Of a stretch of 10,711 nucleotides of DNA, positions 1-9,777 are shown one piece after another; the stretch's first letter is position 1; every line of letters starts with the position of its first letter. Below the pieces are notes generated by a model, which did no database searches, was not told the origin of the DNA, and saw nothing but the letters and a program-made list of their open reading frames with translations. The DNA lies in IMG/VR virus record IMGVR_UViG_2554235190_000004; one strand, 5' to 3'. This stretch comes from a virus. Its lineage: Duplodnaviria > Heunggongvirae > Uroviricota > Caudoviricetes. Both the position numbers and the translations under genes were made by a program.

Positions 1-567
1 ATGCTTATTGGCTATGTACGCGTGTCAACAAATGACCAGAACACCGATTTGCAACGTAGTGCGCTGAACTGCGCGGGATGTGAGCGGATTTTTGAGGATA
101 AAATCAGCGGCACTAAGTCCGACAGACCGGGGCTGAAAAAACTGCTCAGGACACTATCGGCAGGAGACACGCTGGTTGTCTGGAAGCTGGACAGGTTGGG
201 GCGCAGTATGCGGCATCTTGTTACGCTGATAGAAGAGTTACGCCAGCGTGGTGTGAATTTCAGAAGCCTGACTGACAGTATTGATACCAGTACCCCAATG
301 GGCCGTTTCTTTTTTCATGTCATGGGTGCCTTGGCTGAAATGGAACGCGAACTGATAGTTGAACGTACCAGGGCAGGGCTGGCTGCAGCTCGTGCCAAAG
401 GCAGAGTAGGTGGACGCCGTCCTAAGTTGACCACCGAACAGTGGGCACAGATTGGGCGTTTACTCGAGGCCGGAGAATCAAGACAGCGTATTGCACTGAT
501 TTTTGATGTAGGTGTTTCTACCATTTATAGAAAATTTCCGGCAAATAAGATCAATGAATCCCCCTGA
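1..567 (+). CDS. Serine site-specific DNA invertase (Hin/Gin/Pin/Cin family resolvase-invertase)
   Basis: 188-aa ORF beginning MLIGYVRVSTNDQ, the typical N-terminus of serine invertases with the catalytic Ser in the VRVSTxDQ motif; C-terminal helix-turn-helix (GVSTIYRKF). Length matches Hin/Gin/Pin (about 185-193 aa). The window begins exactly at the start codon, so the upstream crossover site is not visible. Confidence 0.9.
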   Translation: MLIGYVRVSTNDQNTDLQRSALNCAGCERIFEDKISGTKSDRPGLKKLLRTLSAGDTLVVWKLDRLGRSMRHLVTLIEELRQRGVNFRSLTDSIDTSTPMGRFFFHVMGALAEMERELIVERTRAGLAAARAKGRVGGRRPKLTTEQWAQIGRLLEAGESRQRIALIFDVGVSTIYRKFPANKINESP

Positions 568-615
568 ATCAGCATTATGTTGATTATCCCTGCAAGCAGA
601 CAAATACCGTTATTT

Positions 616-633
616 TGTGTGAATAACGGCACA
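616..633 (+). promoter_or_regulatory. Candidate Ogr-dependent late promoter upstream element (TGT-N12-ACA dyad) for the FI operon
   Basis: TGT at 616-618 and ACA at 631-633 separated by 12 nt, lying inside a hairpin-capable dyad (ccgttatt 607-614 / aataacgg 622-629). The dyad centre is about 85 bp upstream of the FI ATG, which would put a transcript start near 680 and leave a 5' UTR of about 30 nt with the AGGAGG at 695-700. P2-family late promoters carry TGT-N12-ACA centred near -55 (recalled from the literature). Confidence 0.4.
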
Positions 634-709
634 ACTGCGATTAGCTGTTTGGCAGGCACAATCACTTCAACATAGGGCGAAGCCTAATCCAATCAGGAGG
701 TTCGCCACT

Positions 710-1882
710 ATGGCTCAGGATTACCACCACGGGGTGCGCGTTGTTGAAGTCAACGAAGGCACCCGATCCATTACCACGGTGAGCACCGCCATCGTGGGTA
801 TGGTCTGCACGGGCGATGATGCCGATGCAAAAATGTTTCCTCTTAATAAACCCGTGCTGATCACTGATGTGCTGACTGCCAGCGGTAAAGCGGGTGAGTC
901 CGGCACGCTGGCCCGTTCGCTGGACGCCATCGCTGACCAGGCAAAACCCGTGACCGTTGTTGTGCGTGTGCCGCAGGGTGAAACGGAAGAAGAAACCACG
1001 ACCAATATCATCGGCGCAGTGACTGCAGAAGGTAAAAAAACAGGCATGAAAGCCCTGTTATCTGCCCAGACACAGCTCGGCGTTAAACCACGCATTCTCG
1101 GCGTGCCGGGTCACGATAACAAAGCCGTTGCTACTGAGTTGCTGAGCGTGGCGCAAAGCCTGCGCGGGTTTGCTTACCTGTCAGCGTATGGCTGCAAGAC
1201 GGTACAGGAGGCGATCACTTACCGTGAAAACTTCAGCCAGCGCGAAGGAATGCTGATCTGGCCCGACTTTACTGGCTGGGACACGGTGCTGAATGCCGAA
1301 GCAACGGCATATGCCACCGCCCGTGCGCTTGGTCTGCGCGCCAAAATTGATGAGCAGACCGGGTGGCACAAAAGCCTGTCCAACGTGGGCGTGAACGGTG
1401 TCACCGGAATTTCTGCAGATGTGTTCTGGGATCTGCAGGACCCGGCAACCGATGCGGGTCTGCTGAACCAGAACGACGTCACCACGCTTGTGCGTAAAGA
1501 CGGTTTCCGCTTCTGGGGTTCCCGCTGTCTGAGCGATGATCCGCTTTTTGCCTTCGAAAACTACACCCGCACGGCGCAGGTGCTGACGGACACAATGGCA
1601 GAAGCGCACATGTGGGCAGTGGACAAACCGCTGAACCCGTCGCTGGCGCGCGACATTATCGAGGGCATCCGCGCCAAAATGCGCAGCCTGGTCAGTCAGG
1701 GGTATCTCATTGGTGGTGATTGCTGGCTGGACGAGTCGGTGAACGACAAAGACACTCTGAAAGCCGGAAAACTCACCATCGACTACGACTACACGCCAGT
1801 GCCGCCACTTGAAAACCTGATGTTGCGTCAGCGCATCACCGATCAGTACCTGGTGAATTTCGCCAGCCAGGTCAGCGCGTAA
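710..1882 (+). CDS. FI: Contractile tail sheath protein (P2 gpFI family)
   Basis: 390-aa ORF, strong RBS AGGAGG 9 nt upstream of the ATG; size and position (directly before the tail tube gene) match P2 FI; the translation reads as a myophage sheath protein by my recollection of the family. Confidence 0.9.
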
Positions 1883-2764: not shown

Positions 2765-2898
2765 CGGTTGACGATCTGGTGGCAGATATCGCCACCATTT
2801 TTCACTGGCCGCCATCCGTTACTGACGTTATGCCGCTGACCGAAGTGCTGGAATGGCGGTATAAAGCGATTCAGAGAAGCGGGGCCAACGATGAGTGA
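2462..2898 (+). CDS. E+E': Tail assembly chaperone frameshift fusion gpE+E' (join about 2462..2725 with -1 shift to 2898)
   Basis: Hand translation of the -1 frame from 2719 gives FFVEEVGACRFTDSLTVDDLVADIATIFHWPPSVTDVMPLTEVLEWRYKAIQRSGANDE then stop, with no in-frame stop; the end overlaps the tape measure ATG at 2891. Absent from the supplied ORF track because it has no ATG of its own. Confidence 0.65.
2719..2725 (+). other. Programmed -1 ribosomal frameshift slippery heptamer TTTTTTG (E to E')
   Basis: tttttt g at 2719-2725 inside gpE; the -1 frame is open from here to the TGA at 2896-2898. This is the same arrangement as the P2 E/E' and lambda G/GT chaperone frameshifts. Confidence 0.65.
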
Positions 2899-5800
2899 TA
2901 ATAACCTGCGCCTGCAGGTCATTCTTAATGCGGTTGACAAACTCACCCGCCCATTCCGTGCTGCACAGGCCAGTTCGAAAGAGCTGGCTGGCGCAATCAG
3001 AAACTCCCGTAACGCATTAAAGCAACTCAATCAGGCGGGTAACAGCCTGGAAAAATTTCGCAAGCTGCAGGCCGATAACAAGAAGTTAGGCGACAGGCTG
3101 AACTATGCCAGACAGAAGGCTAATTTGCTTAGCTCTGAGCTGGAGGCGATGGAACAACCATCACAACGGCACCTTGTGGCTTTAGGTCGGCAAACGCTGG
3201 CAGTCCAACGCCTGGAAGAACAACAAAAATATTTGCAGAAGCAAACGGCACTTGTGCGTGCAGAACTGTACCGGGCGGGAATTTCTGCGAAAGATGATGC
3301 GGGAGCAACTGCCCGTTTAGCCCGTGAAACATCACGTTATAACCAGGAATTGTCGAAACAGGAGGCGCGGCTGAAGCGACTGGGGGAGGCTCAGCGCAGG
3401 ATGAATGCTGCGCGTGCCAGTTATGCCCGTTCGCTGGAGGTGCGTGATCGTATTGCAGGTGCCGGAGCCACCACCACGGCTGCAGGGCTGGCAATGGGCG
3501 CACCAGTGATGGCGGCAGTAAAAAGCTATACCAGCATGGAAGATGCCATGAAAGGTGTGGCAAAGCAGGTCAATGGTCTGCGTGACGATAATGGCAACCG
3601 CACTGCACGTTTTTATGAAATGCAGGATGCCATCAAGGCTGCCAGCGAACAGTTGCCGATGGAAAACGGTGCTGTGGACTTTGCCGCACTGGTTGAAGGT
3701 GGTGCGCGCATGAACGTCGCAAACCCTGACGACAGCTGGGAGGACCAGAAACGTGACCTGCTGGCCTTCGCCAGCACGGCAGCAAAGGCGGCAACAGCCT
3801 TTGAGCTGCCAGCGGATGAACTGTCAGAAAGTCTGGGGAAAATCGCCCAGCTCTACAAAATCCCTACCCGCAATATTGAACAGCTCGGTGATGCGCTGAA
3901 CTTTCTGGATGATAACGCCATGTCGAAAGGGGCGGACATCATTGATGTGATGCAACGTCTGGGCGGTGTGGCTGACCGTCTGGATTATCGTAAAGCGGCG
4001 GCGCTGGGTTCCACCTTCCTGACACTGGGCGCTGCGCCGGAGGTTGCAGCCAGTGCAGCAAACGCGATGGTGCGTGAATTGTCCATTGCCACCATGCAAA
4101 GCAAGAGTTTCTTTGAAGGGATGAATCTGCTGAAACTCAATCCTGAAGTGATTGAAAAGCAGATGACGAAGGATGCGATGGGAACTATCCAGCGTGTGCT
4201 GGAGAAGGTGAACGCACTGCCGCAGGACAAGCGTCTGTCTGCCATGACCATGTTGTTTGGTAAAGAGTTTGGCGATGACGCGGCGAAACTGGCAAACAAC
4301 CTGCCGGAACTACAGCGCCAGCTAAAACTGACAGCGGGCAATGATGCGCTCGGTTCCATGCAGAAAGAATCCGACATCAACAAGGACTCACTTTCTGCTC
4401 AGTGGTTGCTGGTCAAAACCGGAGCGCAGAACACCTTCAGCAGCCTGGGCGAAACGCTGCGCCAGCCGCTGATGGATATTCTGTACACGGTGAAAAGCGT
4501 CACAGGGGCGTTGCGTCGCTGGGTGGAAGCTAACCCGGAACTGACAGGCACACTGATGAAAGTAGCCGCTGTGGTGGCTGCCGTTACCGTGGGCCTCGGC
4601 ACCTTAGCGGTGGCGCTGGCTGCAGTGCTGGGGCCGCTGGCAGTGATCCGTCTGGGATTCTCTGTGCTGGGTATCAAAACGTTACCTTCCGTTACGGCAG
4701 CAGTAACTCGAACCAGCAGCGCGTTGTCCTGGCTGGCTGGCGCACCACTGGCACTGCTGCGACGCGGGCTTGCTTCATCGGGCAACGCCGCAGGTTTACT
4801 AACTGCGCCGTTGTCGTCTTTGCGCCGCACGGCATCACTGACGGGAAATGTCCTGAAAACGGTAGCAGGTGCGCCGGTTGCACTTTTGCGGTCTGGATTA
4901 TCCGGTTTACGTGCGGTTGCTGTGATGTTTATGAATCCACTGGCAGCACTACGCGGTGGACTGGCTGCCGCAGGCGCGGTGCTGCGAGTACTGGCATCTG
5001 GTCCACTGGCGATGCTGCGCGTTGCCCTGTATGCCGTATCTGGTCTGTTAGGTGCTCTGCTCAGTCCGATAGGTCTTGTGGTTACTGCACTGGCGGGCGT
5101 GGCGCTGGTTGTCTGGAAATACTGGCAACCCATCACCGCATTTCTTGGTGGCGTGGTGGAAGGATTCAAAGCGGCGGCAGGTCCCGTCAGTGCAGCATTC
5201 GAACCGCTTAAGCCCGTGTTCCAGTGGATTGGCGACAAAGTACAGGCGCTGTGGGGCTGGTTTACTGATCTGCTGACGCCCGTTAAGTCGACCTCTGCCG
5301 AACTGCAGAGTGCAGCGGCAATGGGGCGGCGATTCGGGGAGGCACTGGCGGAAGGGCTGAATATGGTCATGCATCCGCTGGACTCCCTGAAATCCGGCGT
5401 TTCCTGGTTGCTGGAGAAACTCGGCATTGTCAGTAAAGAGGCTGCAAAGGCGAAACTGCCGGAAAGAGTGACGCGTCAGCAACCTGCGACGGTGAATGCA
5501 GACGGTAAAGTGATGATGCCATCGGGTGGTTTTCCGTCATGGGGATATGGCTTTGCGGGGATGTATGACAGCGGCGGCTATATCCCGCGCGGGCAGTTTG
5601 GCATCGTCGGTGAAAACGGGCCTGAAATTGTTAACGGCCCGGCAAATGTGACCAGCCGGAGAAATACAGCTGCACTGGCTGCCGTTGTTGCCGGAATGAT
5701 GGGGGTTGCTGCCGCGCCTGCAGAGCTTCCACCGTTGCATCCTTTGGCACTTCCCGCGAAAGGCGGCGAAGCGATGGTGAGTCGTGCAGCCACTGTGCCG

Positions 5801-5968
5801 CCCGTTCACCGGATTGAGGCACCGACGCAGATCATCATTCAGACGCAGCCAGGACAAAGTGCGCAGGATATTGCACGGGAGGTGGCACGCCAGCTTGATG
5901 AACGTGAACGCAGGCTGAAGGCAAAAGCCAGGAGTAACTACAGCGATCAGGGGGGATACGACGCATGA
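2891..5968 (+). CDS. T: Tail tape measure protein (P2 gpT family)
   Basis: 1025-aa ORF immediately after the chaperone pair; N-terminal charged coiled-coil-like region, central hydrophobic Ala/Leu/Gly-rich repeats, conserved position. Its stop overlaps the start of U (ATGA at 5965-5968). Confidence 0.9.
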   Translation: MSDNNLRLQVILNAVDKLTRPFRAAQASSKELAGAIRNSRNALKQLNQAGNSLEKFRKLQADNKKLGDRLNYARQKANLLSSELEAMEQPSQRHLVALGRQTLAVQRLEEQQKYLQKQTALVRAELYRAGISAKDDAGATARLARETSRYNQELSKQEARLKRLGEAQRRMNAARASYARSLEVRDRIAGAGATTTAAGLAMGAPVMAAVKSYTSMEDAMKGVAKQVNGLRDDNGNRTARFYEMQDAIKAASEQLPMENGAVDFAALVEGGARMNVANPDDSWEDQKRDLLAFASTAAKAATAFELPADELSESLGKIAQLYKIPTRNIEQLGDALNFLDDNAMSKGADIIDVMQRLGGVADRLDYRKAAALGSTFLTLGAAPEVAASAANAMVRELSIATMQSKSFFEGMNLLKLNPEVIEKQMTKDAMGTIQRVLEKVNALPQDKRLSAMTMLFGKEFGDDAAKLANNLPELQRQLKLTAGNDALGSMQKESDINKDSLSAQWLLVKTGAQNTFSSLGETLRQPLMDILYTVKSVTGALRRWVEANPELTGTLMKVAAVVAAVTVGLGTLAVALAAVLGPLAVIRLGFSVLGIKTLPSVTAAVTRTSSALSWLAGAPLALLRRGLASSGNAAGLLTAPLSSLRRTASLTGNVLKTVAGAPVALLRSGLSGLRAVAVMFMNPLAALRGGLAAAGAVLRVLASGPLAMLRVALYAVSGLLGALLSPIGLVVTALAGVALVVWKYWQPITAFLGGVVEGFKAAAGPVSAAFEPLKPVFQWIGDKVQALWGWFTDLLTPVKSTSAELQSAAAMGRRFGEALAEGLNMVMHPLDSLKSGVSWLLEKLGIVSKEAAKAKLPERVTRQQPATVNADGKVMMPSGGFPSWGYGFAGMYDSGGYIPRGQFGIVGENGPEIVNGPANVTSRRNTAALAAVVAGMMGVAAAPAELPPLHPLALPAKGGEAMVSRAATVPPVHRIEAPTQIIIQTQPGQSAQDIAREVARQLDERERRLKAKARSNYSDQGGYDA
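4631..5029 (+). repeat. In-frame tandem repeats within the tape measure gene (six copies of a roughly 21-aa unit with core xPLAxLRxGL)
   Basis: Protein positions about 581-713: GPLAVIRLGF, APLALLRRGL, APLSSLRRTA, APVALLRSGL, NPLAALRGGL, GPLAMLRVAL at about 21-22-aa spacing, with correspondingly repetitive GC-rich DNA. Confidence 0.6.
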
Positions 5969-7637: not shown

Positions 7638-7856
7638 ATGATGATTTGCCCACTGTGTGGAAGTGCCGCCCATACTCGCAGCAGTTTTCAGGTATCTTCA
7701 TTGACCAAAGAGCGTTACAACCAGTGCCAGAACATTAACTGCAGCCATACTTTTGTTACCCATGAAACTTTTGTTCGTTCGATTGCAACGCCAAAAGAAT
7801 CAAATCCGGTTCAGCCGCATCCAATGAAATCAGGGCAGGTGGCGCTCTCTCTTTGA
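7638..7856 (+). CDS. ogr: Ogr/Delta-type zinc-finger late transcription activator
   Basis: 72-aa product MMICPLCGSAAHTRS...KERYNQCQNINCSHTF with a C-x2-C-x22-C-x4-C zinc-binding motif and close resemblance to P2 Ogr (MFHCPLC...KERYHQCQNVNCS, recalled). RBS GGGGAG at 7622-7627. The 83-aa form in the ORF track (from 7605) is probably an artefactual N-terminal extension. Confidence 0.88.
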   Translation: MMICPLCGSAAHTRSSFQVSSLTKERYNQCQNINCSHTFVTHETFVRSIATPKESNPVQPHPMKSGQVALSL

Positions 7857-7936
7857 CGCTGCCGCCATTTTATCGCCATCGTTAAAAAACAGTGATTCTA
7901 ACATCATGATTTTAAACGGTATAAATTTCAGGCAAC

Positions 7937-7979
7937 AAAAAACCCATCAACCTTGAACCGAAATGGCGGGGTTGATGGG
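7937..7979 (-). terminator. Rho-independent terminator read on the - strand (10-bp stem cccatcaacc/ggttgatggg followed by a T-run), likely the ybjL terminator
   Basis: The inverted repeat 7943-7952 / 7970-7979 with AAAAAA at 7937-7942 on the + strand gives stem plus UUUUUU on the - strand transcript; the loop is long (17 nt); located about 115 bp downstream of the ybjL stop. Confidence 0.5.
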
Positions 7980-8091
7980 CTCCACAAAATGGGGACATCA
8001 AAGAAAAGCAGTGGCACTAATTAAGACTGATGCCCTGCGGAAAAGTTCTGCGGTTGTGCAAAAAAATTTCATTTTCAGGGCAACTTCAGTT

Positions 8092-9777
8092 TTATCCTAA
8101 TCCTGGCCATACCATGACGATGATTGTCCCTGCCAGCGTCAGCAGGACGTTGGCGATTGCATAGGTGCCCGCATAGCCCAGCGCCGGGATGTTACTGCGA
8201 GCTGTATCACTGATGATCTCCATTGCCGGCGCGCAGGTACGTGCGCCCATCATTGCGCCGAACAACAGCGCGCGGTTCATTCGCAATACATAAGCACCGA
8301 ACAAGAAACAGATAACCACGGGCACCAGACTGACAATCAATCCGGCAATCAACATCTGACCGCCAATCGCGCCCAGGCCGTTATTAATACCGCTACCGGC
8401 GCTCAGACCAACGCCTGCCATAAACACCATCAAGCCGAACTCTTTCACCATGCTTAATGCACCCTGCGGAATGTAACCGAAGGTCGGGTGGTTAGCACGC
8501 ATAAAGCCCAGCATAATTCCGGCGAATAACAACCCGGCAGCGTTCCCCATGCCGAAACTGAATGTGCTGAACTGGAAGGTGATCATCCCGATCATCAGCC
8601 CAATAACAAAGAAGGCGCAGAATGCCAGCAGGTCAGTGACCTGGCTGTGAATCGAGATAAAGCCGATGCGATCGGCGATGGTTTTTACGCGGCGGGCATC
8701 GCCGCTGACTTGTAAAACGTCACCTTTGTTAAGCACGACGTTGTCATCTATCGGCATCTCAATCTGGCTACGAATGACGCGGTTAAGGAAGCAACCGTGA
8801 TCGGTCAACTTCAGTTGTGCGAGACGTTTACCTACAGCGTTATGGTTTTTAACGACCACTTCTTCAGTGACGATACGCATGTCGAGAAGGTCACGATCGA
8901 AAACTTCTTTACCGTTACGGAAGCTGGGATCGAGTCGGGCATGGGCGTCGGGATAGCCTACCAACGCTATTTCATCGCCCATTTGTAGCACGGCATCACC
9001 GTCTGGATTTGCCAGAATCCCGTTACGTCGAATACGTTCAATGTAGCAGCCGGTTTGTCGATAAATACCCAGTTCACGCAGATTTTTGCCGTCGGTCCAG
9101 GCCACCAGTTCCGGGCCGACGCGATAGGCGCGGATCACCGGTAAATAAACCTTACGGTTGGCATCAGTGTCCAGGCCACGTTCGCGGGCGATTTGCTGGG
9201 CGCTGGTCTGTAAGTCCTGATGCTGCAATTTCGGCAAGTAACGCGCACCAACAATCAAACTCACCAGACCGATTAAATAGGTTAAGGCATACCCGAGGCT
9301 CAGATTATCCAGTGCCAGTGAGAGCTGCCTGCTTTCCATGCCGGAATGACGCAGTGTATCGCCAGCACCGACCAGAACCGGTGTCGACGTCATAGAGCCT
9401 GCTAACATACCGGCCGTCAGGCCAATATCCCAGCCAAACAGCTTACCTAACCCTAAGGCGATCACCAGCGCACTGCCAACCATCACCAGTGCTAACATTA
9501 GGTAATTTTTCCCATCGCGAAAAAAAATGGAAAAAAAGTTCGGTCCGGCTTCGACCCCGACGCAGAAAATAAACAGCATAAAGCCAAGATTAAGCGCATC
9601 GGTGTTAATGCTGAAATGTTGTTGGCCTAATAACAGCGATACGACTAAAACGCCAATGGAATTACCCAGTTGGATCGAACCAAGTCGTAACTTTCCGAGA
9701 CATAGCCCAAGCGCGAGGACCACAAATAATAACAGAATGTAATTCCCATTTAACAATTCGGCGACGTTTATATTCAC
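8092..9777 (-). CDS. ybjL: Putative transporter YbjL (AspT/YidE/YbjL family, two membrane domains flanking cytoplasmic TrkA-C-like domains)
   Basis: 561-aa ORF with GTG start; [24 protein letters not shown]... matches E. coli YbjL as I recall it, including length; hydrophobic N- and C-terminal halves with a soluble middle. Confidence 0.9.

Follow-up and report, generated by a model that had tools for sequence, protein, structure and literature searches.

A Gin-type DNA invertase in the fun(Z) slot of a P2-like Escherichia coli prophage and its probable role in a Mu G-segment-type tail-fibre switch

Inversion of tail-fibre genes by Gin-type invertases is a familiar feature of Mu, P1, e14, Fels-2 and P2-like prophages. 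The stretch of prophage DNA analyzed here (10,711 nt, hereafter the window) begins at the start codon of a gene for such an enzyme, which is followed by a set of P2-like tail genes. What does an invertase do at the head of a P2-like tail operon, and is there anything upstream for it to invert? An earlier note, made from the letters of the window, had predicted an invertible cassette of tail-fibre C-termini and chaperones immediately 5′ of position 1. Comparison with near-identical genomes gives us high confidence that window 1-567 encodes the recombinase of a host-range switch of the Mu G-segment type, carried by a P2-like prophage integrated by ybjL in E. coli.

The invertase gene (1..567, + strand) is an intact ORF of 188 aa that opens at base 1. 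Its product is a small serine recombinase of the resolvase/invertase family, with Pfam matches to Resolvase (PF00239, E 2.6e-53) in a catalytic N-terminal domain containing Ser9 and to HTH_7 (PF02796, E 1.4e-15) in a C-terminal DNA-binding domain. Residues 1-184 align without gaps and collinearly with the Mu Gin crystal chains 3UJ3 and 4M6F (E 5.6e-92). The catalytic nucleophile Ser9 is retained within MLIGYVRVSTNDQ, and the VVWKLDRLGRS motif is also aligned; opposite Ser9, the Gin chains have Ala (3UJ3) or Ser (4M6F). Residue 114 is Met, and Val in both Gin chains. Provided that these chains bear the M114V change that confers Fis independence, the window enzyme has the wild-type, Fis-dependent residue at this position. 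By tblastn, the protein is 98.9% identical to the Cartapus invertase, 85.6% to Fels-2 Fin and 78.6% to P1 Cin. Collinearity with Gin, together with the identities to Cin and Fin, places it with good reason in the Gin/Cin/Pin/Hin/Fin (Din) group of serine recombinases, and the complete Hin/Gin/Pin-type invertase that the earlier note had recognized at the start of the window is therefore confirmed.

The remainder of the window is the right arm of a P2-like (Peduoviridae) prophage in which all phage genes lie on the + strand. The invertase gene is followed by FI (tail sheath, 710..1882, with Pfam matches to Phage_sheath_1, Phage_sheath_1C and Gp18_domIII_N), FII (tube), E, the tape measure gene T (2891-5968), U, D and ogr, and Pfam matches in the window cover sheath, tube, TAC_7, GpU, GPD and Ogr_Delta. 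The chromosomal genes ybjL, ybjM and grxA come after ogr, consistent with integration next to ybjL, and V-W-J-I-H lie upstream in relatives. The late gene order FI-FII-E-(E′)-T-U-D-ogr and a predicted Ogr-dependent pF promoter both point to a P2-like phage. This promoter is assigned to the intergenic region at 568..709 (+ strand), which aligns with the annotated activator-binding site and transcription start of P2 pF and would serve the FI-FII-E-T-U-D operon. It contains a putative activator dyad, TGT-N12-ACA (~617-634), an AACATA −10-like box (~668-673) and an AGGAGG ribosome-binding site just before the FI start codon at 710; an alignment of P2, Fels-2, one invertase-less relative and the window shows no variation in the ACATA box or in the TTGT and CA of the dyad. 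A sigma-70 scan of window 1-800 returned chance-level matches only.

Since 568-709 aligns with the pF region of P2, the invertase gene precedes the F operon instead of belonging to it, and FI, the first gene of that operon, forms the right border of the slot. The order in P2 is H, G, terminator, fun(Z) on the minus strand, pF activator site, transcription start and FI, so that fun(Z) occupies the same position, between the fibre chaperone gene G and pF/FI. The invertase thus fills the Z/fun slot of P2 and is co-oriented with the tail operon, both being on the + strand, as had been proposed. It differs in kind from the P2 occupant, a lysogenic-conversion gene that is unrelated and runs on the other strand.

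The upstream layout was read from relatives encoding exactly the proteins of the window. None of the records retrieved by exact protein matches the window at every one of its 10,711 nt, and the best differ by a single nucleotide: the loci L031 (GCA_053264495.1) and L033 (GCA_024371905.1) are each 1 nt apart from the window over its full length, and L036 is 2 nt apart. A megablast search of 5,426 complete E. coli genomes gave a best identity to the window of ~98%. The close relatives form a tight lineage, defined by an identical tape measure protein of 1,025 aa. In this lineage the invertase gene is preceded by H, a + strand chaperone gene matching Caudo_TAP, and then a chaperone gene and an ORF for a fibre C-terminus on the − strand, the last of which stops ~30 bp before the invertase start codon. 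The Pfam matches are Phage_tail_fib together with either Collar or Gp53-like_C for the fibres, and Caudo_TAP for the chaperones. All six lineage members with contigs extending upstream possess the whole cassette and its two crossover sites. The predicted cassette directly 5′ of position 1 is therefore found in L031 and L033, as opposed to being read on the window's own molecule.

The segment is bounded by two sites that fit the Din crossover consensus TTCTC..AAACC..GGTTT..GAGAA, an imperfect palindrome of 26 bp. The left site (L), TTCTCGCATACCTTGGTTTGGGAGAA, is located within H, and the right site (R), TTCTCCCAAACCAACGTTTAAGAAAA, starts 81 bp before the invertase start codon, with its central dinucleotide 68-69 bp before it. 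L is made up of TTCTCGCATACC, TT and GGTTTGGGAGAA, and R of TTCTCCCAAACC, AA and CGTTTAAGAAAA; a central TT in L and AA in R on the + strand means that the sites are inverted relative to each other. A generic inverted-repeat search of L001 missed them, a shorter seed caught them in L005 and L004, and the consensus scan followed. Among invertase-bearing E. coli loci with an intact cassette and available DNA extending far enough upstream, L and R are the sole consensus matches in 12 loci at up to five mismatches and in six more at up to three. Relatives that share the sheath protein but lack an invertase gave no site, or one only, in the same scan. The pattern is also matched by the annotated cix sites of P7 and by the equivalent positions in Fels-2 and Cartapus. 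Paired, inverted 26-bp sites of the Din type thus flank the cassette in genomes 1 nt from the window, and the expectation of inverted crossover sites of ~26 bp, with one shortly before the invertase start codon, holds in these relatives.

Does the segment invert? Two pairs of genomes in the lineage of the window, L033 and L034 on one side and L035 and L030 on the other, carry the same 1,817-bp segment in opposite orientations with 1-7 mismatches, and the 3-kb flanks on each side of it have 0-1 mismatches. L007 and L011 share a segment of 1,874 bp which, once reverse-complemented, has 0 mismatches and is bounded at the central dinucleotides; their flanks differ at 2/8059 and 14/10634 positions. 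Near-clonal genomes with opposite orientations point to inversion between L and R, and the flip-flop cassette of the earlier note is thereby met with in sister genomes with almost identical flanks. Inversion has occurred in this lineage, a statement that stands apart from its rate or present activity. Among the complete E. coli genomes, the two junction types occur in 444 and 42 genomes (at least 80% query coverage), counts that are rough given that the cassettes are mosaic.

The consequence for the fibre can be read from an in-silico flip of L005, which converts a 502-aa H with a Collar-type tip to an in-frame 466-aa H′ with a Gp53-like_C tip. The two proteins share their first 354 aa, and the breakpoint falls in the site-encoded peptide LLAYLGLGE. 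The same flip brings a 146-aa chaperone ORF downstream, the other chaperone being 200 aa. The C-terminus of the fibre is swapped in frame and its cognate chaperone is placed downstream.

Some contigs of the lineage, from short-read or metagenome data, begin close to the R site: L036 (1-42), L037 (1-17) and L038 (1-9) start 8-41 nt before it. Such breaks fit reads of mixed orientation, but could also stem from repeats that other prophages share.

The only cis element of inversion able to lie inside the window would be the recombinational enhancer. A putative Fis-bound enhancer (sis) is assigned to 19..86 (unstranded) by homology to nt 19-86 of P7 cin, annotated as “putative enhancer of Cin-mediated C-segment inversion.” Over these positions the window is identical to cin at 54/68, to gin at 49/68 and to fin at 56/68, and coding constraint explains most of the identity in the cin comparison. 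Invariant third-codon positions peak in nt 1-60 (7/20, vs. 1-5/20 elsewhere), which is a weak signal. A scan upstream of the start codon in L005 found no sigma-70-like promoter between the R site and the ATG, and expression of the invertase accordingly stays inferred.

In the switch that we propose, the ~1.8 kb segment directly upstream of the window, bounded by L in H and R before the invertase gene, would consist of two divergent sets, each pairing a fibre C-terminus with its own assembly chaperone. By analogy with Gin, Hin and Cin, invertase dimers would bind L and R, and Fis bound to the enhancer within the 5′ coding region of the invertase gene would probably assemble the invertasome. Ser9 would then make staggered 2-bp cuts at the central TT/AA, followed by a 180° subunit rotation of the half-sites and religation. 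Each inversion would join the constant 354-aa N-terminal part of H to a C-terminus of either the Collar or the Gp53-like_C type and put the matching chaperone gene downstream of the fused H. Induced phage populations would then be expected to carry two fibre specificities.

This arrangement is closest to that of Mu, where a constant fibre part is likewise followed by a site, Sv-U, inverted U′-Sv′, a second site and then a co-oriented invertase. The G-segment boundary in Mu (S-U-U′-S′-gin) is 67 bp before gin, a spacing equivalent to that found here, and the gix-type sites of Mu are similarly of 26 bp with an AAACC-NN-GGTTT core. The two systems differ in their host phage, which here is P2-like, in the length of the segment (~1.8 kb here vs. 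~3 kb in Mu), in the fibre cassettes, which here are of other families (Collar and Gp53-like_C), and in the central dinucleotide, here TT/AA. Relative to P2, the 3′ end of H, G and the slot have all been replaced by a Mu-G-like module. Cin of P1 and P7 belongs to the same enzyme group and its cix sites fit the same consensus; however, cixL adjoins the 3′ end of cin and the segment measures ~4 kb, whereas here it is the 5′ end of the gene that faces the segment, as in Mu.

Invertase-bearing P2-like phages are already represented by Fels-2 (Fin, STM2702), Cartapus, 500465-1, pro483 and SEN8, in which the gene has the same position between H-G-G′-H′ and FI; that of Cartapus is annotated as “Mu phage Gin invertase homolog.” The crossover sites of Fels-2 and Cartapus lie at positions equivalent to those here, and differences from the Fels-2 group are allelic only, comprising fibre cassettes, some bases of the sites and the integration site, which here is ybjL. 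The tail-fibre segment next to fin in Fels-2 is inverted between LT2 and LT7, giving alternative C-termini on identical N-termini (PMC7953296). In cultures of enteropathogenic E. coli (EPEC) E2348/69, invertible loci were found in two P2-like prophages, at one of which all four variants coexist in clonal populations, as validated by PCR (PMC4272514). The authors ascribed these inversions to hin homologs and the alternation of tail fibres (PMC4272514). Inversion is not discussed in a study of P2-like coliphages (PMC5285337).

The module varies considerably among relatives. Loci L029, L031 and L033 of the window's lineage have segments of 1,854, 1,835 and 1,817 bp, respectively, with differing content, although their 3-kb left flanks have 0-1 mismatches and their right flanks match too, save for a deletion in the FI gene of L029. 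Differing segments between near-identical flanks mean that fibre/chaperone cassettes are swapped by recombination inside the invertible segment. The FI deletion, in the near-identical relative L005/L029 (GCA_028597835.1), removes 648 bp, equivalent to window 850-1496 (L005 10849/10848); FI is intact in the window. Loci with an identical sheath protein vary at this slot. L014 (8295-9866) has a cassette of H, chaperone, inverted chaperone and inverted H C-terminus, with a degenerate R site (4 mismatches) and no invertase gene. L012 and L013 have a plain H-G arrangement and no site, and L015 and L017 have a lone L-type site inside H. Insertion sequences are also seen: L009 has an IS1 within its invertible segment (7823-8520), and the match in FORC_081 (NZ_CP029057.1) covers an IS26 and lists the recombinase two times, which suggests that IS26 splits the recombinase gene. 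In L001 (8476-8937), RefSeq calls the antisense fibre C-terminus “integrase, incomplete; missing N-terminus,” which is a misannotated Sv′ fragment. A second variable slot is located between S and V, outside the window (L001 2728-3534, L005 3609-4502, L007 3626-4492, L013 3835-5040). Its genes are on the minus strand and differ by relative, encoding DUF6216, a faint match to DUF2971 or an unannotated product.

The most extensive rearrangement is that of EPEC E2348/69 (L025, NC_011601.1 864000-880000). Here the invertase gene is 98% identical at the nucleotide level, the variable fibre cassette is missing, and the invertase is preceded by an inverted block of 4,761 bp that contains the 3′ end of S, a moron, V, W, J, I and the constant portion of H. 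The junctions of this block are hybrid 26-bp sites with a central TA (L025 9732-9757 and 14491-14516), one consisting of a quasi-site in S joined to the outer half of L, and the other of the remaining half of the quasi-site joined to the outer half of R. When the block is turned back in silico, a full gpS ORF of 148 aa with the conserved RYAKRRLLG motif is regained. The reconstructed quasi-site X is absent from other S genes at up to four mismatches, since S is variable at its 3′ end, and it is the regained ORF that validates the reconstruction. Recombination by the invertase at a quasi-site together with a deletion looks to have crippled this prophage, and the event resembles the quasi-cix events described for Cin. 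The four assemblies of E2348/69 are uninformative as a same-strain comparison of orientation because the cassette has been lost in that strain.

Might the invertase of the window itself be an orphan, intact as a gene in a source genome whose cassette has been deleted or rearranged so that nothing upstream flips? The earlier note had named this outcome as one that would speak against its prediction, and it does apply to E2348/69, with its 98%-identical gene, hybrid sites and lost H/G/G′/H′ cassette. The IS26 next to or inside the recombinase gene of FORC_081 and the IS1 within the segment of L009 indicate that modules decay elsewhere too. However, the E2348/69 junction is confined to the four assemblies of that strain among the 5,426 complete genomes, and the six lineage members that reach upstream, L031 and L033 included, all retain the full cassette and both sites. 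We consider an orphan very unlikely for the window. Slightly less probable still is a frozen system, in which the cassette is present and the invertase silent or inactive, the two orientations being relics of ancient events or of homologous recombination between prophages. The lack of a predicted promoter upstream of the invertase start codon and the skew of the junction counts (444 vs. 42) count in favour of such a state, as does the evidence that cassette content also recombines within the lineage, given segments of 1,817, 1,835 and 1,854 bp between identical flanks. Neither relic is easily reconciled with flips that end exactly at the central dinucleotides, and where genomes differ by 0-1 mismatches in the 3-kb flanks and in the segment, the flips must be very recent. 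Moreover, the ORF is intact with all Gin-aligned residues present, and close homologs flip in culture (PMC4272514). The contigs that break 8-41 nt before R behave as mixed-orientation reads would make them, an argument tempered by the shared repeats that could do the same.

A role for the enzyme beyond switching the phage's own fibre is also unlikely, if somewhat less so than either of these states. The invertase may rearrange prophage DNA by acting in trans or at quasi-sites, which the scrambled E2348/69 prophage suggests, or the flip may serve the lysogen as an anti-phage defence switch; PinQ and PinR inversions were recently reported to block T2 adsorption (PMC12529663). The fibre switch of the Mu G-segment type remains by far the best account of the gene and of the DNA that precedes it in its nearest relatives.

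Read in this way, the inversion system of the window is an already known one, correctly recognized, and it brings no new biology. Its value is practical. It accounts for the breaks and differences among assemblies of this prophage immediately before the invertase gene, and for the mislabelling of the antisense fibre fragment by annotation pipelines. Predictions of host range for P2-like prophages of this kind must take in two fibre tips.
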